From Bacteroidales bacterium (GTDB lineage: Bacteria; Bacteroidota; Bacteroidia; Bacteroidales; VadinHA17), in assembly GCA_046484805.1 (NCBI GenBank), contig JAWOIF010000157.1, positions 35,000 to 98,999 on the forward strand: DNA of 64,000 bases, given 5' to 3'. Both the position numbers and the translations under genes were made by a program. This document shows, piece by piece, positions 5,721 to 37,415 of the stretch. Every line of letters starts with the position of its first letter. Positions within the stretch are counted from its first letter, which is position 1. A model generated the notes under the pieces. It made no database searches. It was not told the DNA's origin and saw nothing but the letters and a program-made list of their open reading frames with translations.

Positions 5721-8700
5721 ATGATAACGAAGATGAAGCCTGATTTTTTATTCGAGACCAGCTGGGAAATTTGCAATAAGGTAGGTGGTATCCATACGGT
5801 CATATCAACAAAAGCACTGAATATTGTTAATGAATTAGGGAATAATTATATACTGATAGGCCCGGATGTGTGGCGTGAAGATACCAAAAACCCTGAATTC
5901 ATACCCGATGAGACTCTGTTTGCGGCCTGGAAAGGATTTGCTGCGGGTGAAGGTCTCAGAGTCAAGACGGGGAGATGGAACATAGCAGGAAAGCCAATTG
6001 TCATGCTGCTGGACTTCACTCCTTATTTTGGTCAGCAGGACGAGATATTTGCCAGGTTCTGGGAGACATACAAGCTTGACAGCATCTCGGGTCAGTGGGA
6101 TTATGTTGAGCCGGCACTTTTCGGATATGCTGCCGGCAAACTAATTGCCAGCTTTACCACCTTCTACAGGGAGAGTCAGGCAGTAGTCGCTCAGTTTCAT
6201 GAATGGATGACGGGTACAGGAGTATTGTATCTCAAAGAAACTGCTCCATGGGTGGCAACCTCATTCACAACCCATGCAACCGTGCTGGGTCGCTCTATAG
6301 CAGGGAATAACCGTCCCCTTTATGGTCAGATGAAGCAATATGTGCCTTCACAGGTAGCTCTTGAATTCAATGTTACGGCAAAACAATCACTGGAAAAATT
6401 GAGCGCAGTTGAGGCAGACGTATTTACTACTGTAAGCGGTATAACTTCCAAAGAGTGTGCTCACTTCCTTGGGAAGGAGGTTAACTATGTTACTCCAAAC
6501 GGTTTTGAAGATTCATTTGTTCCGCCGGCTTCCGAATTCGGAAAGAAGCGTGAAGCAGCAAGAAACAAACTTCTTGATGTTGCTGAGGCGGTCTTTGGTT
6601 ACACACCATCTTCAGATGCCTTACTGCTTGCACTAAGCGGCAGGTATGAATTCAGGAACAAGGGAGTGGATATTTTTATTGATTCACTGGGCTGTCTTAA
6701 CCGCGACACTAAACCGGGAAAGGAGATAATCGCTTTTATCCTTATGCCGGCTTACCATTCCGGTCCGCGTGCCGATATCCAGTCAGCCCTCAATGACAGT
6801 AATTCGAAGAATACCGGAGATAAGTATCTTACACACGGACTGCATTATCCTGGCACCGACCCGGTTTTGTCAAAGATAGCAGTCAATAAACTGACCAATG
6901 AATCAGGTTCAAGGGTGAAAATAATCTTTGTGCCCTCATATCTTAACGGTGATGACGGAGTATTCAATATACCATACTTTGATCTGCTTATTGGATTCGA
7001 CCTTACTTCTTTCCCATCCTACTATGAACCATGGGGCTACACTCCATTGGAAAGCCTGATGTTCTCGATTCCTACAATTACCACTACCCTGGCCGGATTC
7101 GGACTATGGGTGAAGACCCATTTTGAAAACCCCGGCAAAGGAATTGCAGTCATTGATAGAACCGATGAAAATGAACAGGAAGTAATAAAGGAGATGTGTA
7201 AATTCATTTCTGAATTTACCCGTCTCTCATCTGACAAGGTAGAAGAGGCAAGGGGAAAAGCCCATGAGATATCAAGGATTGCGATGTGGGATACTCTTGT
7301 TACTCATTATTATGATGCTTATTCCTATGCTCTTGTTTCCTCTGAGGTCAGAAGATCAGAACCGAGAGAATTTGCCATTGCACTTGCCGGTCAGGCTGGC
7401 GAAAGCAGGAAACCTCACCAGGTTCCGGTGTGGAAAGATATCTTCGTTCAGTCTGATGTGCCGGAAAGAATGACATGCCTTAAAGAGATAGCCTGCAACC
7501 TTTGGTGGTCGTGGAATAATGAAGCTGAAAATATGTTCCAGAGGATGGCCCCGTCACTATGGGAAGCCTGTGGTCATAATCCAAGGCTCCTCATTGAAAA
7601 GATAGATTACAAGAGGTTGAAGGTGCTCTCGGAGGATGAGGATTTCATCACGGAAATGGACAGGATATACGCGATTTTCAGGGAGTATATGGACAGACCC
7701 GATGATGCTTCCAAACCAAGGGTCGCATATTTTAGTATGGAATTCGGTATACACCATTGCCTGAAGATCTATTCAGGGGGACTTGGTATTCTGGCAGGCG
7801 ATTATCTTAAGGAAGCAAGCGACTCAAATGTGCCGCTGGTAGCAATAGGCCTTCTATACAGGTACGGGTACTTCAGGCAGAAACTTGGTCCTAAAGGAGA
7901 GCAGATCGCAATTTACGAAGCAGAGGATTTCTCACATCTTCCCCTGTGCCCGGTAAAAGATCAGGAGGATAACCATTTGTCGGTCAGCCTTGTCTGGCCG
8001 GGGAGAAACGTGCTGGCAAGGGTTTGGGAGGCAAAGATCGGAAAGGTAACGCTCTACCTGCTCGATACAGATTTTGATGAAAACAGCCACGAGGACAGAT
8101 CAGTAACCCATCATCTGTATGGTGGAGACAATGAGAACAGACTCAAACAGGAGCTGGTACTTGGTATTGGAGGAATAAGGGTTCTCAGAAAGCTGGGGAT
8201 AACACCCGATATCTATCATAGTAATGAGGGACATTCAGCTTTCATTGGAATGGAGAGGCTGTTCCATCTTATCGGAGATAATCACCTCAGGTATGAAGAG
8301 GCGGTTGAAGTTGTGAGGTCCTCTACTCTTTTCACAACACATACTCCGGTGCCGGCAGGACATGATGCATTTGATGAAGATCTGTTAAGGAGATATATAT
8401 CTCATTATCATTCCCGACTGAAGATATCATGGGATGAACTTATGGCGCTCGGGAGGTGTTCGTCAGAACCCGAACGAAAGTTCAATATGAGTTATCTGGC
8501 AACAAGGCTTTCACAGCAAGTCAATGGTGTAAGTAAGCTTCACGGAGAGGTTTCAAGGGCAATGTTCAACAAGCTCTGGCCGGGTTACCTTAAGGAAGAG
8601 CTTCATATCGGGCATGTGACCAATGGTGTTCACCATCCGACATGGTTGGCGCCACAGTGGCGTGACGTTTATGAGGAGCTTACCGGGCAGCGCTACTTTG

Positions 8701-9956
8701 ACCAGACAGACAGAAGCCTTTGGGAAAGAATATACTCGCTTGAAGACAAAAAGGTATATGATATCAGAAGAGAACTGAAATCAGCATTGTTCAAGGCAAT
8801 CAGGAGTAAGCTTCAGAGTGAAATGATCGACAAGCACGTTAGCCCGAGGAAGCTGCTGAATATAAGTACCCATCTTGATGAGAAAGTATTGACAATTGGT
8901 TTTGCCAGAAGATTCGCAACCTACAAGAGAGCTCACCTTCTGTTTACTGATCTTGACAGGCTTGATGCCCTTGTTAATAATCCCGATCAGCCCGTACAGT
9001 TCATATATGCAGGTAAGGCTCACCCTCAGGACGGAGGTGGACAGGGTCTTATACAACGCATAAATGAAATATCGCAGATGCCGAGGTTTGCAGGAAAGAT
9101 TCTTTTCCTTGAGAATTACAACATGGAGCTTGCAAAGCTATTGGTCAGAGGTGTTGACATATGGCTTAATACTCCTACGAGGCCACTGGAGGCTTCGGGT
9201 ACAAGCGGCGAGAAGGCGGTTATGAATGGAACCCTCCATTTCAGCGTACTTGACGGATGGTGGGTGGAAGGCTTCAGGGCATTTGCGGGCTGGGCCCTGC
9301 CTCAGAAGAGAATTTTCACCAATCAAATCCTTCAGGATGACATAGATGCTGAAACTATTTACAATATGCTTACATATGAAATTGTGCCTGCATACTATTC
9401 ATTTAATGAAAATAATATTCCGGTGGAGTGGATCAGCCTGGTAAAAAACACCATGGTAAGGATTGCTCCGGAGTTTACGATGAAGAGGATGATTGATGAC
9501 TATATTGAAAAATACTATCAGCCACTCTGGAACCGTAGTCGTCGCATAATTTCAGATGAGTTTGCCCTTGCAAGGGAGATGGCCTCCTGGAAGGAGGAAA
9601 TGGTAAGAGAATGGGATAATATTGATATTCTATCCTATAATATCGAGAAACCTGATGGAAATGTTTACAGGTCGGGCAGAAAATACAGGGCAGAGGTTGT
9701 TCTCGATGTTAATACTATTCAGCAGGAGTTTGTCGGGGTCGAGTATGTTCTGACAAGGATGAAGACGACAGGGGAGTATGAATTTGTTGCCAGTGGAGAA
9801 TTCAAACCAGTGGGCTTCAAGAAAGGTAAGTGCTATTTCAGGGCAGAGCTGACACCTGAGAAGGCTGGATCATTCTTCTATGGAATCAGGATATTCCCCA
9901 AGCATAAGATGCTTCCCCACAGACAGGATTTTCCCCTGCTGAGATGGATTGTTTAA
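5721..9956 (+). CDS. Fusion protein: GT3 (eukaryote-like) glycogen synthase N-terminal half + GT35 alpha-glucan phosphorylase C-terminal half
   Basis: One uninterrupted 1,411-aa ORF. The N-half has LFETSWEICNKVGGIHTVISTKA and YEPWGYTPLES (GT3 signatures). The C-half has LWWSWNNEA (DUF3417-type N-terminus), GGLGILAGDYLK and EASGTSGEKAVMNG (PLP-lysine motif of phosphorylases). Confidence 0.85.
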   Translation: MITKMKPDFLFETSWEICNKVGGIHTVISTKALNIVNELGNNYILIGPDVWREDTKNPEFIPDETLFAAWKGFAAGEGLRVKTGRWNIAGKPIVMLLDFTPYFGQQDEIFARFWETYKLDSISGQWDYVEPALFGYAAGKLIASFTTFYRESQAVVAQFHEWMTGTGVLYLKETAPWVATSFTTHATVLGRSIAGNNRPLYGQMKQYVPSQVALEFNVTAKQSLEKLSAVEADVFTTVSGITSKECAHFLGKEVNYVTPNGFEDSFVPPASEFGKKREAARNKLLDVAEAVFGYTPSSDALLLALSGRYEFRNKGVDIFIDSLGCLNRDTKPGKEIIAFILMPAYHSGPRADIQSALNDSNSKNTGDKYLTHGLHYPGTDPVLSKIAVNKLTNESGSRVKIIFVPSYLNGDDGVFNIPYFDLLIGFDLTSFPSYYEPWGYTPLESLMFSIPTITTTLAGFGLWVKTHFENPGKGIAVIDRTDENEQEVIKEMCKFISEFTRLSSDKVEEARGKAHEISRIAMWDTLVTHYYDAYSYALVSSEVRRSEPREFAIALAGQAGESRKPHQVPVWKDIFVQSDVPERMTCLKEIACNLWWSWNNEAENMFQRMAPSLWEACGHNPRLLIEKIDYKRLKVLSEDEDFITEMDRIYAIFREYMDRPDDASKPRVAYFSMEFGIHHCLKIYSGGLGILAGDYLKEASDSNVPLVAIGLLYRYGYFRQKLGPKGEQIAIYEAEDFSHLPLCPVKDQEDNHLSVSLVWPGRNVLARVWEAKIGKVTLYLLDTDFDENSHEDRSVTHHLYGGDNENRLKQELVLGIGGIRVLRKLGITPDIYHSNEGHSAFIGMERLFHLIGDNHLRYEEAVEVVRSSTLFTTHTPVPAGHDAFDEDLLRRYISHYHSRLKISWDELMALGRCSSEPERKFNMSYLATRLSQQVNGVSKLHGEVSRAMFNKLWPGYLKEELHIGHVTNGVHHPTWLAPQWRDVYEELTGQRYFDQTDRSLWERIYSLEDKKVYDIRRELKSALFKAIRSKLQSEMIDKHVSPRKLLNISTHLDEKVLTIGFARRFATYKRAHLLFTDLDRLDALVNNPDQPVQFIYAGKAHPQDGGGQGLIQRINEISQMPRFAGKILFLENYNMELAKLLVRGVDIWLNTPTRPLEASGTSGEKAVMNGTLHFSVLDGWWVEGFRAFAGWALPQKRIFTNQILQDDIDAETIYNMLTYEIVPAYYSFNENNIPVEWISLVKNTMVRIAPEFTMKRMIDDYIEKYYQPLWNRSRRIISDEFALAREMASWKEEMVREWDNIDILSYNIEKPDGNVYRSGRKYRAEVVLDVNTIQQEFVGVEYVLTRMKTTGEYEFVASGEFKPVGFKKGKCYFRAELTPEKAGSFFYGIRIFPKHKMLPHRQDFPLLRWIV

Positions 9957-29798: not shown

Positions 29799-29812
29799 AA
29801 ACTAAAACAAAG

Positions 29813-29855
29813 AGAGGCTGTCTCAAAACAAATTATTGAGGCAGCCTCTTTTTTC
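29813..29855 (+). terminator. Rho-independent terminator (left copy of the islet-bracketing hairpin)
   Basis: 14-bp stem, 29813-29826 / 29836-29849 (AGAGGCTGTCTCAA / TTGAGGCAGCCTCT, one G-U pair), a 9-nt loop, then a T6 run. Confidence 0.85.
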
Positions 29856-30063
29856 CCCATGTTAACCAATTTCTCGTATTGAGATTAAAAAACTTTGGTT
29901 TTTATTTGTAGACATTCAACTGTGGGTTCTTTTCGCTTTTTCCTATCATTTCTGCAAGGTTTTTCCCTAGTTTACCCAGAACCTTGCAAATTGACAAATT
30001 ATGTTTTCGATATATATTGTTAATTATCAACAATATAGACTGTTTATAAGGATCGACTAATTA

Positions 30064-30098
30064 TTAGAGGCAAAGAATCAAATAATCTTTGCCTCTAA
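30064..30098 (-). terminator. Perfect 13-bp hairpin downstream of the toxin operon (possible terminator)
   Basis: TTAGAGGCAAAGA (30064-30076) pairs with TCTTTGCCTCTAA (30086-30098) across a 9-nt loop. The flanking T-runs are weak in both orientations, so function and strand are uncertain. Confidence 0.4.
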
Positions 30099-30196
30099 GA
30101 TTTAATTTAATTCCCATATGGATAAGGATAAATTGGTCTTGGCGCAACATATGTATTATCTACTGGTGTTGTTGGTTGCGTTATATTTGATTTTGG

Positions 30197-30428
30197 TCAA
30201 TTCTTATGTAATTCATAAGCTCCGGCGGTACTAATCGCAGGCCAAAACCATTTTGGAGGTCTACTTCCGGGAGGATAATACTTATCATTTTGTAATCGAT
30301 TAATTTCTGGGTCAAAACTCCAATCAGTTGGATTGCCACGACTTGTTGTTGTTCTTTCCAAATTTGGATTTAAAATACTTTTACCTGCTAAGTGCAAAAT
30401 TATTGCCGATGTAATTCCAAAAACTCAT
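30197..30428 (-). pseudogene. Small ORF with hydrophobic N-terminus, split by a frameshift at a T5 (plus-strand A5) run
   Basis: The ATG at 30428 opens only 15 codons (MSFWNYIGNNFALSR*). The 66-codon track ORF (30197-30397, TTG start) is in the adjacent frame. Deleting one T at 30419-30423 would give MSFGITSAIILHLAGKSILNPN...AYELHKN. Confidence 0.4.
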
Positions 30429-30452
30429 TCCCCTCCCTGTGAACCGACCTCT

Positions 30453-30923
30453 CTATAATTCAACCTCTAAATTATCTATAACCTCCTTTTTACCATTACA
30501 ATATTTTACAAAAACAAACTCTAAATTCTCATATTTCAACTTAGTATATCCAACCACATTATCCGTTTTATCGAGTTCAGCTACTTTAACGCTATCTAAC
30601 AGAGAAGAATTACTTTGAAATGCTACGAAAACAAACGTCTTTTCAGATTTATCTTTATACTTTACCTCAATATAATTCATTGAGGTATAATTGTTATAGT
30701 TAAAATTGTATTTAGCAATTTTGTATTCGGAAGCAACTTCACCAGTTAATGTAGAACAGACAATGTTTTTGTATAGAGATTCTGCTATATTATCCCAGTC
30801 ATCATAAGCTTCTCCATCTTCCCATTTTATTTTTGCTTTTTCAAGCCAAGGAATTATTGCCAATAATGCGCCTCTGAATATTACTACTAAATCGGTTACA
30901 GATGTTTTCAATTTGTTGCTCAT
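30453..30923 (-). CDS. Putative cognate immunity protein of the RHS toxin (unknown family)
   Basis: The ATG at 30923 lies 2 nt after the RHS stop codon (30926-30928). The product is 156 aa (MSNKLKTSVTDLVVIFRGALLAIIPWLEK...) with no signal peptide. The longer track ORF start (31040) would overlap the toxin gene and was rejected. Confidence 0.6.
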   Translation of the reverse strand: MSNKLKTSVTDLVVIFRGALLAIIPWLEKAKIKWEDGEAYDDWDNIAESLYKNIVCSTLTGEVASEYKIAKYNFNYNNYTSMNYIEVKYKDKSEKTFVFVAFQSNSSLLDSVKVAELDKTDNVVGYTKLKYENLEFVFVKYCNGKKEVIDNLEVEL

Positions 30924-30925
30924 AA

Positions 30926-33900
30926 TTAATTTCCCCATATTCGTTTTATTAGATTTAGTTGCTCTTGTGTCGGTGCCACTTTCGGTCCAAATCCTTGACC
31001 TGGTATTACTGACTTCGCCCTTTCCCTTGTTATATCCCAAATCACCTGTCCTTGTTGATTAGTAATAAGAACTCTACCTTCTACACCACCTTTAACAACC
31101 GAATTAGCGGGACCAGTAGCGTTCTTTAGCAATTGGCCACTTCTACCTCCTTTAATAACGATATCTGAGTGAGTTGCAAGATTGCTTACCCCCTTACTGG
31201 CAACTACTGTAGTTTTAGCACCAAAATTTATCGTAGAAGCCTTTCCTAAAGTAAAAACTTCCCCAGCACATACCAAAAACCAACCAGCTGCATTCAAGTA
31301 GTCACCAGCATAAATTGCATCCATTGTTCTTGCACTTGAACTTAAACCAGGCCAATTGTAAATGCTGTACCAAGCTTGCCCCCTTCCATTTGTGGCCATT
31401 ACTGCATCCTTTGCGCGCCAGCGAATTGGTTTTTCAGGATTGACTACTACCTCAGGGATAACGAATGCATTTTCCCAATCAGAATTCTCGAAAGAAGCAG
31501 AATTGGTGCCATAATCAATTTCCGGGTTATCGCCGGTAGTACTTTCAGGGATTGAGGAAGATCCTCCTCCATTGAAAATTCTTTTCAAGAAATCCTTCAG
31601 CCATCCTCGCTTATAACCTGTTGGATCAATATATTTTAACGGGTTATTCAGGCAGTAAGTATACCTGTTGAAGTTCTGGACATTTGAGGGTGACTGTATG
31701 AACGGGTCAGGACTCAGGAACATAGCAAGCAACGGATCATAAACTCTGCCATTCATATTAATTATTCCGAAATCATCGAGATGCTGGTGTCCTGTGAAAC
31801 CTCTGTCAAACCGAAATTCCGTGTTAAAGGTGTCAAAATCCCAGTCATCTGTGGACCTCCTGCGACCCCAGGGATCAAAGCTCAACCACTCTTCGGCAGT
31901 CCCTGAGCTGTTTGTAATAACATCAAATGAGCCCAGGATGTCGCTATGAATATAGAAGATGGAATCTCCCCCTGTCTTAGACTCCAGAATAGCAGATAGT
32001 CCTGATGGGGTATATATGTAGTAAAGCTCCCTTGTACCCTTTACCGTGTCTACTTCCTTTTCATAACTACCGAGTGCGAAGTATTTAGTAAGTCTGGTCA
32101 CCGAGTTCTCTTCCTGAATAGTCTTTATTCTTCTCTGATCCGGTCCGTAGGTTATGGAAAGGTTCTTGTTAAGGATTCCATCCGAGACTGAAACTGTGTT
32201 TATCTTATTGAACTTTGTATATGTAATGTTCTGAGTGGGGAGGTTCTCAATAAGTGGGGTTCTGTCAGTAATGGAGTCAAGGCGGTGCACATAGGTTGGA
32301 TTATAGCAAAATGTTCCGACATCGCGCTTCGATATTATATTGCCTAAGCCTCCTGAATCATATGTTAACGACAGAGTGTCAGTCCCTATAACTGCGGTAA
32401 TTAACCTGTCCTGGCTGTCATAAGTAAAATACTCTTCGTTGTATGTGCCGGAAGAATTCAGACCTTTTCGCTTAACAATATTACCAAAGGTACTACTAAA
32501 ATCATAATCCCAGTCCTGTATTTGAATAGTTCCTTTTACTGATTCAATCTTATCAAGGTAACCATACTGATCAAAAGAGATAGTGGTATTTACCCCGTTG
32601 CCCAAATCGTAATTATCTATAATTCCGTATTGGTTCATACTATTGGCTTGCCAAATCGTAGTAAGGCTTGAAGATACTTCAAGATTAACCTGGTTCAGAT
32701 AACCATAGTTATTGTAATCATATGAAATGGTTGCAAAATTGTTAAATCCGGCAGAAGAGATGTCTCCATTTGCGAGGTAAGAGTACTGTGCAGTAAAGAT
32801 GTTTCCAGGCTCAATCCTTTCAGACTTTGATGCAACCCTGAATAAAGAGTCGTAGGTGAAGGTATGTTCAGATCCGTTGGTCGATAAAATGCTTGTAAGA
32901 TAGCTTGAGGAAGAATTGTAAGTGTATGTAATGGTATCCCCACCAAGCCTTGCAACCTTAGTTAATCTTCCAAGAGGATCATATTCCATATCAACAACAC
33001 TGCCTTCAGCATCTGTTTGCCTTATAAGCTCTCCGTATATATTGTAATCATAATCTGTTATTCCGGCATCAATATCGATCAGCTCATCCTGGAATCCATA
33101 CTGATCATAAGTGATGACGGTTGTCCCTGAGGGTGAGGTAATAGACGTTACCTTGCCGTCTGGATTATAAGCATATTGAATTGTTCCTCCTGGTTCTGTT
33201 GTCTCAACAATCAAACCGGATTCATCAATTTCCCGGGAAAAAGATCTGTTACCTTTTGTTATGGTTGTTTTCAGCGGTGTGTAAGTATAGCTGGTTGTAA
33301 CATTCTGTGGAAAAACGGTTTCTGAGGAGAGCCTGTTTTTAGAATCATAATTGTATTCAACATACTGTGTTCTGCTTTCACCATCAAAATAAGGGGAATA
33401 GGCTTTATTAATCCTGCCATTAACGTCATACTCTTTGTCTGTAATCAGGAATGTTCCGTCAAAGCCCTGAGTCTTGGCTCTGACTTCTCTGCCAAGAATA
33501 TCATAGAAAGTATATGTAACAGGATTGCCGGATGAACTGGTTTTAACATAATAGAGATCATCAGCATTTTCCACTCCACATGACCAACCCAGATTTATAT
33601 ATTCTGTATTGCCTGATGGATACTCTACCGTGGTTATATTACCAAAAGCATCATAAGAGAATTTTGTTGAGAGGCCATTATGATCAACACTGCTTTTGAG
33701 CCCTCCTGAAGATTGGAAGTAAGAATATGTTGTTGTCTTTCCAAGTGGATTGGTATTTGAGACCATGAATCTCTTCCTTGGAGATTCCCAACTCATTTCA
33801 GTAGTCTTTGACGTTGTACCATCACTTATCTGAATAGAGGTAGAATTACCATAGTTATCATAAGTATACGTAACCCTCAGAGTATCTGTTGTACCGAATA

Positions 33901-36730
33901 ATCTCGTTTCTTTTTTTAGTTTTCCGGAAAGATAGTATTCATACAGGTTGTTTCTGACAATGGTATCACCCCCTCGGGTTGTCATAATTATTTCATTATG
34001 AGGCATTCCATGACCTGTAAAGTTCGAATATGCTTCTACGACACTCACTGTTATATTATCATTCAAATCCATGAATTTGGTTACTGTGGATGTTATGTTC
34101 CCAAGAGTGTCTATTGTTGCTGACACCTGATTTTTTACGTCGTTACTTATATCATAGTCTGTAGAGAGACTACGATATGCAAAAAATCTTTTCCCATCAA
34201 ACAAAGAATCGATTGATTGTTCATATTCTTGCCTTTGCACGAGTTCGCCACCAAAGAAAATTCTTGTTTGTGAAAGGTAGGTATTGAAAAACAGGGTGTC
34301 ATAGGAGAGTTCTATTATTGTGCTGTCTGTGGTTATATTGTCGCAGATGAAGTTTTTCGTAAAACCAAGCGACCCTTTGCCCCGAAGGTGTTCCTTTAGA
34401 TTGGAGTAATAATATGTTTTTTCACCTAATAAGACTTCTGTATTATCATTATATATCTTTACATTATGAACTACTTTTTTAGGGTAAATAGCTCTTCTTA
34501 CATATGAATGAAATGTTTCAGATTCTGTAAGATAGATACTGGAATTAGTAAGCAGGCCATATTGGATATGATGAGTCAGGTTCAGCCCATTGGTGATAGC
34601 AACAATCAAACCCCTTTTGTCTCCCGGGTAAAACTCCAAAACTTTGTCCCCTCCATTATTCATCATAATAAGAAGGTCTGTTGTTCCATCAAAGTTATTG
34701 TCCAGCAGATTCGAGTATCTCGGTTTTTGAGCCCCCGAATAAATGGATTCGGTTTTGAACTGAAGGCCGGTACTTATATACATGTCTTCTGTAAGAATGT
34801 CGGTATAGGTCATAGCCTCTCCCGGAATACCGGTTGCTTCTTTAATATATAATGATTTAAATATATCTGTTTTACCGTCCCTGTTGAAATCATGAACGAA
34901 TAATTGAAGACTTAGCTCTTCGTAATAAGTAATGGGTTCAGGCTCGCCACCTAAAGGAGGTTCTCCGCCAACTGGCTGACCAACAAAGGAGTAAATAGAT
35001 ATTGGGCCTTGAACAGAATGGAAAGTTTCTCCGTCAGAAAAGGCAATTCTGGTTCGTATTGAGTCCGGTATCGAATACTTGTCAACTAACAACAAATCTG
35101 TCTTCCCATCACCGTTAAAATCACCACTATAGTATTCATCATTATAAGAATTATAATAATAACTGACGAGGATTCTAAAGTCCTCATCATATTTAACATA
35201 TTCATATATTTTGAATACGCCGTTATTCTCAGTAAGAATATCCGACTTTCCATTACCATTAAAATCAATCACAGAAACATTTCTTACACCAGAAAAGGAT
35301 AAAAAGTGCTGACCCTGAATGTTAATACCTTGTATGGTGCCTGATGAATAATAGCCTCCTGAGTAATTGACAAACATTCTATCTATATCTCCATCCCCGT
35401 CAAAATCTCCTGGAATACAGTATCCGACATTGTTTGCCGAAGTGTTATATCTGTAATTTCTGGCACTCACATTAACCAACTCCACTCCATCCAGCTCATA
35501 ATACTTGAAGTCCTCATAATAAGTAGATCGGTATTGCCAATATGTATCATCATCTCCATCAGCGTCATAGTCGAAAACCACAATGCCAATGAAGGCTGAG
35601 TTCAGGACGCCGGAGTCAGTGTTTACATAATCATCTATATCCTCATTATAGAGGTATAATTTCCATACATCTGATGTGCTATATATGGTTTTCTTTGCCA
35701 TTGTAATATAATCAGGTTTGCCATCACCATTAAAGTCACCTGTGAAGATGCGTTTATCGCTTGTTGTAACGGACCCGGCATCTACAAGCCTGGTCGATGG
35801 CAAACTATTAGTCCCCCACTGGAACCTGGTATTATTGAATGAAGATCCATCACCGGCAGATTCACTAATCTCAACTAATTTTGTGTAAAAGTTGGTATTA
35901 TAATCGAAGTCATACCTTCTGACAAGAGTATCATCGCAAATAACTTCTATCTTGTTTATAAGCAGCTTCTGCGGAGTCTCACCGCCAGGGAAGAATACCT
36001 GGTTCTTGTTTTGTCTCGTTTCATATGAGAATGCAATTTCATTATACGGAATCAAATTCTCTGAATTATTTCCTGTATAGTGGATGCTTTCAAGAAAGGA
36101 CTGACCGATAGAATAGTTGTATCCATAATTGAAAGAAATATAATTGCCATGAACATCTGTAATCATTGTAACATTCCAAACAATTGCCCGGGAGTTGTCA
36201 TCCACTACCTTTGAGTTTGACGCATTGCCATACTCAATGACAGTACCATCTTTCATTATTACCTCGAACCATGCGGGACCACTTGTTCCATGTGATATAA
36301 TGGTTGCAAAGGTTTCTGATTCAGTCTTATATGTTGAGTTGTCTCCACCATAAGCACCTGTTGCAGAAATCAGATAATTACCATCAAGTGCAAAAAGATC
36401 ATCGCTATCCATATCAATTGCCTTAACAACTCCATTCATGTAATAGGGCGTAACAACCCTGTAAATGGAAGTAAGCCCTTTAAGATGAAAGTCCTTTCCA
36501 AATAAACCTTCTCCCGAGCAGCTATTGTAATCTATACTTAGCTGGGGGCTCATTCCTCCTGTTCCCGGGGAGGCAAAAACCGGTATTGTATAAGTTGATG
36601 CACCACTTAAAGACACGGAAAAGACTCCTTGTGCAGAGCCGACAATCCTTGTCGTATCAATGACAGAGGGAAAAGCAGAAATATTGAAAGATAATATAAT
36701 GAATATTGCTACGGATATTTGTTTTTTCAT
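30926..36730 (-). CDS. RHS/YD-repeat polymorphic toxin: signal peptide + SpvB-N domain + FG-GAP/VCBS repeats + YD-repeat shell + RHS core + 228-aa C-terminal toxin module
   Basis: 1,934 aa. Signal peptide: MKKQISVAIFIILSFNISAF. SpvB-like: STYTIPVFASPGTGGMSPQLSIDYNS..GLFGKDFHLKGLTSIYR. FG-GAP-type motifs: GDFNGDGKPD, GDFDGDGDID, DFNGNGKSD, GDFNGDGKTD, HDFNRDGKTD. There are many YD repeats (YTYDNYGN, FSYDAFGN, YAYNPDGK, MEYDPLGR...). RHS core: YIHSDILGS...FDPWGRRR...GRVYDPLLAMFLSPDP...NNPLKYIDPTGY. Confidence 0.9.
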   Translation of the reverse strand: MKKQISVAIFIILSFNISAFPSVIDTTRIVGSAQGVFSVSLSGASTYTIPVFASPGTGGMSPQLSIDYNSCSGEGLFGKDFHLKGLTSIYRVVTPYYMNGVVKAIDMDSDDLFALDGNYLISATGAYGGDNSTYKTESETFATIISHGTSGPAWFEVIMKDGTVIEYGNASNSKVVDDNSRAIVWNVTMITDVHGNYISFNYGYNYSIGQSFLESIHYTGNNSENLIPYNEIAFSYETRQNKNQVFFPGGETPQKLLINKIEVICDDTLVRRYDFDYNTNFYTKLVEISESAGDGSSFNNTRFQWGTNSLPSTRLVDAGSVTTSDKRIFTGDFNGDGKPDYITMAKKTIYSTSDVWKLYLYNEDIDDYVNTDSGVLNSAFIGIVVFDYDADGDDDTYWQYRSTYYEDFKYYELDGVELVNVSARNYRYNTSANNVGYCIPGDFDGDGDIDRMFVNYSGGYYSSGTIQGINIQGQHFLSFSGVRNVSVIDFNGNGKSDILTENNGVFKIYEYVKYDEDFRILVSYYYNSYNDEYYSGDFNGDGKTDLLLVDKYSIPDSIRTRIAFSDGETFHSVQGPISIYSFVGQPVGGEPPLGGEPEPITYYEELSLQLFVHDFNRDGKTDIFKSLYIKEATGIPGEAMTYTDILTEDMYISTGLQFKTESIYSGAQKPRYSNLLDNNFDGTTDLLIMMNNGGDKVLEFYPGDKRGLIVAITNGLNLTHHIQYGLLTNSSIYLTESETFHSYVRRAIYPKKVVHNVKIYNDNTEVLLGEKTYYYSNLKEHLRGKGSLGFTKNFICDNITTDSTIIELSYDTLFFNTYLSQTRIFFGGELVQRQEYEQSIDSLFDGKRFFAYRSLSTDYDISNDVKNQVSATIDTLGNITSTVTKFMDLNDNITVSVVEAYSNFTGHGMPHNEIIMTTRGGDTIVRNNLYEYYLSGKLKKETRLFGTTDTLRVTYTYDNYGNSTSIQISDGTTSKTTEMSWESPRKRFMVSNTNPLGKTTTYSYFQSSGGLKSSVDHNGLSTKFSYDAFGNITTVEYPSGNTEYINLGWSCGVENADDLYYVKTSSSGNPVTYTFYDILGREVRAKTQGFDGTFLITDKEYDVNGRINKAYSPYFDGESRTQYVEYNYDSKNRLSSETVFPQNVTTSYTYTPLKTTITKGNRSFSREIDESGLIVETTEPGGTIQYAYNPDGKVTSITSPSGTTVITYDQYGFQDELIDIDAGITDYDYNIYGELIRQTDAEGSVVDMEYDPLGRLTKVARLGGDTITYTYNSSSSYLTSILSTNGSEHTFTYDSLFRVASKSERIEPGNIFTAQYSYLANGDISSAGFNNFATISYDYNNYGYLNQVNLEVSSSLTTIWQANSMNQYGIIDNYDLGNGVNTTISFDQYGYLDKIESVKGTIQIQDWDYDFSSTFGNIVKRKGLNSSGTYNEEYFTYDSQDRLITAVIGTDTLSLTYDSGGLGNIISKRDVGTFCYNPTYVHRLDSITDRTPLIENLPTQNITYTKFNKINTVSVSDGILNKNLSITYGPDQRRIKTIQEENSVTRLTKYFALGSYEKEVDTVKGTRELYYIYTPSGLSAILESKTGGDSIFYIHSDILGSFDVITNSSGTAEEWLSFDPWGRRRSTDDWDFDTFNTEFRFDRGFTGHQHLDDFGIINMNGRVYDPLLAMFLSPDPFIQSPSNVQNFNRYTYCLNNPLKYIDPTGYKRGWLKDFLKRIFNGGGSSSIPESTTGDNPEIDYGTNSASFENSDWENAFVIPEVVVNPEKPIRWRAKDAVMATNGRGQAWYSIYNWPGLSSSARTMDAIYAGDYLNAAGWFLVCAGEVFTLGKASTINFGAKTTVVASKGVSNLATHSDIVIKGGRSGQLLKNATGPANSVVKGGVEGRVLITNQQGQVIWDITRERAKSVIPGQGFGPKVAPTQEQLNLIKRIWGN

Positions 36731-36775
36731 AACAGGCTTTTTTATAATGACTTATTGTAGCATCATCTTATACAT

Positions 36776-37225
36776 TTATCTATACCCCGATTTAATAATC
36801 TTCCAGTCATATACTTCTTTTTCCATTCGAATGCGGAGAACATAAACCCCATCCCTCAATCCTGTAAGGTCGACCTCCATTTCATTGGAGTTGATGGCTT
36901 TTGTTAAGAGAAGATTCCCATTTAAGTTGTATACAAAATACTTAGACCTAAATCCTACTTCAAACCCTGAGAGTTCAATTTTTATTTTGCCCCTGGTGGG
37001 ATTAGGAAAGACTTTCATGAAGAATTCCTGTTCAACCTTTATTGGTTTAAATTCTTCAGGCGTCGTAACCGGAAATTCAAGAGGCATCAATTGCTCAATA
37101 ACAATTTCCCTGCAAGTCCTGTTGCCATTTGCATCATAGGAATAAAATTGTCCTCTTCCCTGTCCTGCTAAATGTAAACAAGAAGACAGGAGGAAAATTA
37201 AGAAAATTAAGGTTCCTTGTTTCAT
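36776..37225 (-). CDS. Small secreted protein: signal/lipobox + one YD repeat + T9SS type-A C-terminal sorting domain
   Basis: I prefer the ATG at 37225 over the TTG at 37273. 149 aa: MKQGTLIFLIFLLSSC (signal/lipobox), FYSYDANGNRT (YD motif), then KVFPNPTRGKIKIEL...VYNLNGNLL...GVYVLRI...KIIK (Por secretion tail pattern). It ends 45 bp upstream of the RHS start. Confidence 0.7.
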   Translation of the reverse strand: MKQGTLIFLIFLLSSCLHLAGQGRGQFYSYDANGNRTCREIVIEQLMPLEFPVTTPEEFKPIKVEQEFFMKVFPNPTRGKIKIELSGFEVGFRSKYFVYNLNGNLLLTKAINSNEMEVDLTGLRDGVYVLRIRMEKEVYDWKIIKSGYR

Positions 37226-37415
37226 GATGTGATATAGTATTGGTGACAGATCGAATTGTATTGCAGAAAGCAAATTACATCATAGATTTAGCTTTACCAA
37301 ATCTTTTTTCAGATGAAAAACCCAAAATATAGTTGATATACAGGCCTGGTTGAAAATTTGGAATGACAACTATTAAGTTAGTATAACTCGGTCCAGCAGA
37401 GATAATGATATGCAC

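Follow-up and report, generated by a model that had tools for sequence, protein, structure and literature searches.

We describe here the C-terminal payload of a 1934-amino-acid (aa) Rhs protein encoded in a 64-kb window (the whole stretch of Bacteroidales contig JAWOIF010000157.1 that was analysed), together with the 161-aa open reading frame (ORF) that follows its gene. The last 85 aa of the protein (aa 1850-1934) and the product of this ORF are very probably a toxin and its immunity protein, forming a pair of a new family. What is new is the unannotated toxin-immunity family; the class to which it belongs, that of the Rhs polymorphic toxins, is known, and the system itself is unsurprising. 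Judged from its sequence and those of its homologues, the terminal domain is a widespread, strongly conserved family without annotation in Pfam, NCBIfam, PHROGs, PDB or BFVD.

The terminal domain family and its probable immunity partner

An initial annotation of the window had suggested that the toxin proper would lie in the last 90 aa or so of the protein and would be beta-rich. Both points are borne out: homologues delimit a conserved domain of about 85 aa, and its AlphaFold2 model is beta-rich. Of the 47 clusters that a first search returned, 41 align with the last 85-90 aa (45-84% identity), and the other six match only the pre-toxin module described below. A profile of 36 sequences, run exhaustively with HMMER against 1.84 billion representatives of clusters at 50% identity, then gave 249 representatives at E<=1e-3, 197 of these at E<=1e-10. 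Given 41 close homologues and about 250 cluster representatives, the tail is real coding sequence and not a chance reading frame. One 1391-aa match with 15 matched stretches (P0223) was discarded as spurious, as it is the translation of a low-complexity repeat.

Members share the signature GGRSG...GPxNS...GR..T[ND]..G.V..D[IV]T..R.K...PG.GFG.K..PT, and in 160 of 165 proteins (~97%) the domain ends no more than 12 residues from the C-terminus. Mean column identity over the 85 aa is 47-74% (alignments A1 and A2), with 45-70% identity between phyla. A scan of one genome per species located 23 loci in at least eight phyla, with copies in Bacteroidota, Planctomycetota, Acidobacteriota, Myxococcota, Alphaproteobacteria and other Pseudomonadota, Verrucomicrobiota and Actinomycetota, and a partial one in Cyanobacteria; no copies carried by phages, plasmids or viruses were found in INPHARED, PLSDB and IMG/VR. 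The carriers are mostly Rhs proteins (of Bacteroidota, Planctomycetota, Myxococcota, Pseudomonadota and Actinomycetota), some of which also hold SpvB, TcdB_toxin_midN, FG-GAP or DUF6531 domains, but the domain is also found on an actinobacterial T7SS_signal protein and behind a PT-HINT domain. With this tip on several scaffolds, and the pre-toxin module of the window ahead of at least four other C-termini, the C-terminus is polymorphic in the sense that defines Rhs polymorphic toxins.

The ATG of the 161-aa ORF lies inside the last toxin codons (...IWGN*), so that the two genes overlap by 13 nt at the Rhs stop (30926-30938). The ORF product is 100% identical to P0048 of a Bacteroidales metagenome-assembled genome and has 85 further homologues, among which no Pfam domain was found. 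A homologue stands directly downstream of the toxin in 20 of 25 loci (phmmer E 1e-82 to 1e-12), in every phylum sampled, the remaining loci being truncated contigs or partial matches, and in close relatives the toxin and immunity homologues carry adjacent locus tags. By conserved synteny, the ORF is thus the probable cognate immunity gene, immediately downstream, that is a hallmark of Rhs polymorphic toxins. The overlap of start and stop codons is 13, 4 or 1 nt: the 13-nt form recurs in loci of Bacteroidota and in one Hyphomicrobiales locus (L001, L003-L012 and L017), while other phyla have 4 or 1 nt. Conservation of the 13-nt overlap suggests that translational coupling has been kept with the cassette.

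All the immunity homologues are acidic (isoelectric point, pI, 4.5-5.3), and none has a signal peptide; the hydrophobic stretch at their N-terminus forms a conserved amphipathic helix that bears charged residues. AlphaFold2 models the 161-aa protein at a mean predicted local distance difference test (pLDDT) of 89.5. From these sequence features and the synteny we infer that the downstream ORF represents a dedicated immunity protein family that would neutralize the toxin by binding to it. The lack of an export signal on the immunity protein suggests a toxin that acts in the cytoplasm of the target cell.

Two relatives deserve mention for their organization. The closest in its toxin domain is P0001 (84% identity), an orphan Rhs tip of 382 aa with its immunity gene behind it (L001, 4001-9149, on JGI contig Ga0558720_00025), and further downstream are two more pairs of a tip-like and a small ORF, beside an integrase fragment and a HipA_C gene, so that this locus is an array of orphan toxin-immunity cassettes. 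In Candidatus Amoebophilus asiaticus 5a2, an obligate amoeba symbiont (L003, CP001102.1, ~1064666-1075100), a 144-aa version of the toxin, Aasi_0845, has the immunity gene directly after it; the ORFs of 759 and 539 aa upstream of Aasi_0845 may be a fragmented carrier.

The carrier protein and the anatomy of its tail

The carrier comprises, in order, an SpvB N-terminal domain, FG-GAP repeats, RHS/YD repeats, an Rhs-associated core and the tail (Table 1). Pfam identifies RHS_repeat (1e-23), SpvB (8.7e-13) and FG-GAP_3 (2.5e-10), and NCBIfam TIGR03696 (6.6e-17) and YD_repeat_2x (3.7e-14); the repeats that form the shell of an Rhs polymorphic toxin are thus present by profile match. Read by eye, the N-terminus MKKQISVAIFIILSFNISAF looks like a Sec-type signal peptide. 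The core ends in a DPxG-type motif directly before the payload, as in other Rhs polymorphic toxins, and this motif is the second of a pair, SPDPFIQ...(22 aa)...IDPTGY, which resembles the paired DPLGL of Photorhabdus Rhs1. In Rhs1 the C-terminus is cut after the second of two DPLGL motifs, the Asp of the second being catalytic (PMC8636562); the motif and the data on the D1338N variant of Rhs1 in that paper are the basis for predicting autoproteolytic release in the window protein.

By analogy with Rhs1 and with work on TcC, the motif would direct autoproteolytic cleavage after DPTGY. The initial annotation had placed a 228-aa tail behind this motif, and the span, the start KRGWLKDFLKRIFNGGGSSS and the end ...LIKRIWGN that it gave are exact. 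It had also taken everything beyond the motif to be payload, which agrees with the position of the tail behind the Rhs-associated core. Because the TIGR03696 match ends at DPTGY and the pair of DP motifs is equivalent to that of Rhs1, there are good grounds for regarding the 228 aa behind the motif as the payload that this Rhs polymorphic toxin would release, the cleavage itself being a prediction.

By homology the tail falls into a variable linker, a pre-toxin module and the toxin domain. Alignments of homologues start only at about tail residue 67-80. The pre-toxin module, which reads QAWYSIYNWPG...AGWFLVCAGEVFTLGKAS... and has an '...EVFTLG' motif, recurs at 59-65% identity in P0038, P0043, P0044, P0046 and P0047, and at 45% over a longer stretch in P0039; the six proteins run on into at least four unrelated C-termini. 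The segment WYSIYNWPG...AGWFLVCAGEVFTLG had been proposed as a pre-toxin linker of the TG type. The first half of this proposal stands, since the same module precedes unrelated C-termini, whereas membership of PT-TG does not, no match to PF14449 being found when the 228-aa tail was compared with Pfam at E<=1. On sequence, aa 1785-1849 is thus best described as a shuffled pre-toxin module that is not a member of PT-TG. Like the described modules PT-TG, PT-HINT and PT-VENN (Zhang et al. 2012, PMC3482391) it lies between a scaffold and interchangeable toxins; with PT-TG, to which it has no profile match at E<=1, it shares position and shuffling only.

The C-terminal domains of P0038, P0039, P0043, P0044, P0046 and P0047 differ from that of the window protein, and none has a Pfam match. 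That of P0043 appears GIY-YIG-like by eye (GIVRYVGIT...R...EH), and in P0046 and P0047 the last domain is small, with K/H/R/E residues conserved; these C-termini may be further unannotated toxin tips. Within the window there is no second copy of the toxin, the immunity gene or the pre-toxin module.

Table 1. Features of the Rhs locus, in window coordinates (aa numbering is that of the 1934-aa Rhs protein)
Feature	Residues	Window position	Strand	Basis or remark
Rhs carrier gene		30926..36730 (including stop)	minus	1934-aa ORF and translation
Rhs-associated core, aspartyl-protease plug	1619-1705	31616..31876	minus	TIGR03696 match ending at DPTGY motif
DPTGY motif, predicted autoproteolytic site	1702-1706	31613..31627	minus	payload begins at K1707
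Tail, 228 aa	K1707-N1934	30929-31612	minus	computed from ORF coordinates
Variable linker, Gly/Ser/Asn-rich	1707-1784	31379..31612	minus	not spanned by any homologue alignment
Pre-toxin module (QAWYSIYNWPGLSSSARTMDAIYAGDYLNAAGWFLVCAGEVFTLGKAS...) and short spacer	1785-1849	31184..31378	minus	shared with six other proteins
Toxin domain, 85 aa	1850-1934	30929..31183	minus	alignments A1 and A2, profile search, AlphaFold2 model
Probable cognate immunity gene, 161 aa, pI 5.2, no signal peptide		30453..30938	minus	synteny and homologues
Upstream small ORF, ~149 aa		36776..37225	minus	TIGR04183 Por_Secre_tail, 3.8e-11

Possible activities of the toxin domain

The initial annotation could assign no catalytic signature to the tail and suggested either a small RNase-like family or a new fold, and profile and structure searches have given no confident match to a characterized toxin. 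At E<=1 neither Pfam nor NCBIfam has a family for the 228-aa tail, and for the last 98 aa the sole match is SEF14_adhesin at E=0.07, below the cut-off of that family. When 97 diverse members were scanned singly against Pfam, PHROGs and NCBIfam (E<=10) no family recurred, and there was no Pfam match to PemK, CcdB or Ntox. A profile built from the most divergent members and run against 5.8 billion proteins retrieved family members only. Single-sequence and profile queries of PDB sequences gave nothing but spurious matches, those to WD40 and to WRAP-T designs being summed from a repeated 17-aa 'GQLLQTLTG' match. The toxin table of Zhang et al. 2012 (PMC3482391) contains no family with these motifs, and the motifs of Ntox23, Ntox25, Ntox30, Ntox39 and Ntox40 do not fit; by profile, the comparison with described Ntox and Tox families covers those with a public profile.

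AlphaFold2 models the toxin domain from the 36-sequence alignment with a pLDDT of 87 and a predicted template-modelling (TM) score of 0.79, in the order strand 1, GGRSG loop, short helix, five further strands and C-terminal helix. Foldseek found no structural neighbour in the PDB for either this model or that of the 161-aa protein; for the toxin the top 50 matches all have TM-scores <=0.35 and none reaches E<=1e-3. The top matches in BFVD, a 148-aa phage protein labelled glycosyltransferase (E=0.02, probability 0.97, TM 0.50) and a MuF-like minor capsid protein, also fall short of 1e-3. The BFVD neighbours are proteins of uncultured siphoviruses, namely A0A8S5TVS2 ('glycosyltransferase'), A0A8S5UYN8 and A0A8S5M376 ('minor capsid protein', 406 aa, possibly a MuF-toxin fusion), with unconfirmed labels.

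Several particular folds were tried and rejected. For MazF, PemK and CcdB, hhalign gave 0.1-1.6% over single sequences and a five-sequence MazF/Kid profile (0.1% for the latter), and these folds are not in the Foldseek PDB top 50; for ColE3 it gave 0.6% over a 20-column alignment, and the D..H..E..R set is not found, the family having no conserved His or Glu; barnase, RelE, RNase Sa, ribosomal protein L27 and Sso7d all gave <4%. These are weak tests of fold, made with thin reference profiles. A likeness of SGQ.VK to the GGQ loop of release factors was dropped, no RF-1 match appearing in the Pfam scan of single members. The R-S-E arrangement of ADP-ribosyltransferases is incomplete: the family has an Arg and an Asn-Ser but lacks a conserved Glu or Gln, and no structure of such an enzyme is among the Foldseek PDB matches.

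Residue statistics over 159 family members show a set of conserved polar positions: R1863 (99%), K1869 (94%), N1876 (89%), S1877 (92%), R1886 (97%), T1890 (97%), T1901 (98%), R1904 (100%), K1906 (99%) and K1917 (95%). D1899 is the sole invariant acidic residue. No column exceeds 4% His or 2% Cys, and Glu reaches at most 18% in the beta core. The single His that had been pointed out, H1854, is indeed present in the window protein, but it is not conserved; 77% of members have Arg at that position, so it is not catalytic. The domain is basic, with a median pI of 10.2, a median net charge of +5 and six near-invariant Arg or Lys residues.

Our overall best explanation, which we hold with moderate confidence, is that of a new-family, cytoplasm-acting Rhs toxin with its immunity protein, the toxin possibly being a His-free ribonuclease (RNase). 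In this scheme the Rhs shell would enclose the tail and the aspartyl-protease core would cut after DPTGY, as in other Rhs and TcC proteins; in the producer the 161-aa protein would bind and block the toxin, and the freed toxin would act in the cytoplasm of the target cell. The 85-aa domain might then be a small metal-independent endoribonuclease in which the Gly-rich GGRSG loop and the short helix would hold an RNA phosphate, with R1863, K1869, R1886, T1890, D1899, T1901, R1904 and K1906 providing His-free acid-base catalysis. Such chemistry would resemble that of MazF or colicin E5, with no detectable homology to either. The domain is like the His-independent endoribonucleases MazF/Kid and colicin E5 in its small size (85-115 aa), its basic character, its conserved Arg, Lys and Thr and its want of a catalytic His, and may share a similar chemistry. 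It differs from them in having no sequence or profile similarity and no Foldseek match to them, and its predicted six strands and GGRSG loop are unlike the MazF architecture.

Taken by itself, the step to RNA cleavage is a tentative one, by analogy, to which we would give somewhat less than an even chance; we prefer it to other activities because of the small size, the positive charge, the Gly-rich loop with its helix and the Arg/Lys/Thr/Asp set. Several points weigh against it. The assignment rests solely on size, charge, residue types and analogy. All of the RNase folds that were tried (MazF/Kid, ColE3, barnase, RelE and RNase Sa) failed, at <4% by hhalign, and Foldseek found no RNase neighbour in either PDB or BFVD. 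A motif search of the literature and the Zhang 2012 table hold no description of the family, and no toxicity, cleavage or binding experiment is known for any member. Moreover, 45-70% identity between phyla would equally well fit a tight-binding inhibitor of a conserved target.

This last point leads to the alternative of a non-enzymatic poison, that is, a stoichiometric binder of a conserved cytoplasmic machine (the ribosome, an elongation factor, gyrase or RNA polymerase), as CcdB is of gyrase. All 85 aa are unusually well conserved across the phyla listed above, the domain is very small, and it has no classical catalytic dyad, His or core Glu, all of which would suit such a binder. Yet the conserved polar residues are found in loops and at strand ends (GGRSG, GPxNS, D.T..R.K), a distribution more like that of an active site; no likeness to CcdB or to ParE-type poisons was detected, and most Rhs payloads characterized to date are enzymes. 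On balance we consider a poison of this kind unlikely, though the best placed of the alternatives to RNA cleavage.

Alternatively, the domain might be an enzyme acting on a nucleotide or cofactor, for instance an NAD(P)+ glycohydrolase, an ADP-ribosyltransferase-like protein or another nucleotide modifier, with GGRSG as its phosphate-binding loop. The strand, Gly-rich loop and helix at GGRSG do resemble a phosphate-binding nest, R1863 followed by S1877 loosely recalls the first two motifs of the R-S-E ADP-ribosyltransferases, and the labels of the best BFVD neighbours (glycosyltransferase and MuF-like minor capsid protein, both unconfirmed) could be read in the same sense. However, these BFVD matches do not reach the 1e-3 threshold, and with D1899 as the sole invariant acid the third motif lacks its conserved Glu or Gln. 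Known ADP-ribosyltransferase and NADase domains are also much larger than 85 aa, and structures of ADP-ribosyltransferases, of which the PDB holds many, are not in the Foldseek top 50. We therefore rate this alternative as decidedly improbable.

Less probable still, to the point that we would be surprised by it, is a known small toxin fold (the SH3-like barrel of MazF and CcdB, the beta sheet of colicin E3, or barnase/BECR) that has diverged beyond the reach of sequence methods. The C-terminal helix VAPTQEQLNLIKRIWGN resembles the ends of E. coli MazF (VAPEELQLIKAKINVLIG) and CcdB (LMFWGI), and hhalign did align this 18-aa stretch, as well as 20 columns with ColE3. Against this stand the hhalign values themselves (0.1% for the MazF/Kid profile, 0.6% for ColE3 and <4% for barnase, RelE, CcdB and RNase Sa, a weak test, given the thin profiles), the absence of any such structure from the Foldseek PDB top 50 with its uniformly low TM-scores, and the lack of a Pfam PemK, CcdB or Ntox match at E<=10 in the 97 sequences scanned. 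Finally, although toxicity is as yet a prediction and the one weak Pfam match is to an adhesin family (SEF14, E=0.07), it is barely credible that the tail is a structural, adhesive or sorting domain with a chaperone or unrelated protein encoded downstream, for the domain sits past the Rhs autoproteolysis motif, where payloads are found; other C-termini can take its place behind the same pre-toxin module, it is carried by several kinds of delivery scaffold, a single small acidic ORF goes strictly with it, often with start and stop codons overlapping, and it occurs with its immunity gene as an orphan cassette in an array.

Returning to the reading of the domain as a new cytoplasm-acting toxin, we speculate further that the GGRSG domain is a new toxin fold whose activity or target is new to polymorphic toxins, be it a His-free RNase of new architecture or an inhibitor of a universal cytoplasmic machine, and that the 161-aa partner is a new immunity fold; we regard this stronger proposal as possible, but would not yet wager on it.

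Related systems, neighbouring genes and significance

With the Rhs/YD-repeat toxins Photorhabdus laumondii Rhs1-Tre23 and Pseudomonas protegens RhsA the window protein has in common the RHS repeats, a core ending in DPxG, a variable payload and a downstream immunity gene. It differs in its N-terminus, which is a Sec signal followed by SpvB and FG-GAP rather than a PAAR domain or type VI secretion adaptor, and in its payload, which belongs to no described toxin family. In comparison with Rhs1, its motif is DPTGY and not DPLGL, and its DP motifs are 22 and not 17 residues apart.

Much of the architecture also recalls the TcB-TcC cocoon of Tc toxins (Photorhabdus TcdB2-TccC3 and Yersinia entomophaga BC), namely SpvB, FG-GAP/beta-propeller, RHS shell and aspartyl-protease plug in a single polypeptide, like a B-C fusion; SpvB and the FG-GAP beta-propeller precede the RHS shell, as they do in Tc B-C proteins. 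Relatives with the same toxin domain include proteins with TcdB_toxin_midN, a domain that Pfam did not detect in the window protein. A TcA-sized partner was not found, the 64-kb window having no ORF >1500 aa besides Rhs and none adjoining it. An uncharacterized 1411-aa ORF (5721-9956, plus strand) is situated ~20 kb from Rhs. A cognate immunity gene sets the window protein further apart from the Tc toxins, and its presence suggests that the payload is toxic to bacteria, or universally so, rather than specific to insects.

The Rhs and immunity genes form an island amid housekeeping genes of a Bacteroidales-type genome. Guanine-plus-cytosine content (window 29800-37400) is 0.31 in the immunity gene and 0.36-0.42 in Rhs, as against 0.45-0.53 in the neighbouring clpX/clpP. 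Between the immunity gene and a convergent lipoprotein-like gene is a 650-bp AT-rich stretch without ORFs (29800-30452), and no Rfam family or terminator was found in the locus. On the other side lies a small ORF of the same strand as Rhs, which stops 46 nt before the Rhs start codon. Its product has a signal peptide, a stretch like a YD repeat ('YSYDANGNR') and a C-terminal sorting domain of type A for type IX secretion (Table 1); the ORF is possibly an accessory gene that connects the Sec-exported Rhs protein with type IX secretion or with the cell surface.

Polymorphic toxins of the Rhs and related kinds have repeatedly been a source of new enzymes, among them deaminases (now base editors), (p)ppApp synthetases and ADP-ribosyltransferases that target RNA. 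The present family is a compact candidate for such work, with 85 aa conserved in at least eight phyla and a single dedicated immunity family. Once its activity is defined, annotation pipelines, in which hundreds of these proteins are now 'hypothetical' or 'RHS repeat-associated', would gain a named toxin-immunity pair, and a new mode of bacterial killing might be revealed. Should the toxin prove to be one more small RNase, the gain would be chiefly one of annotation.

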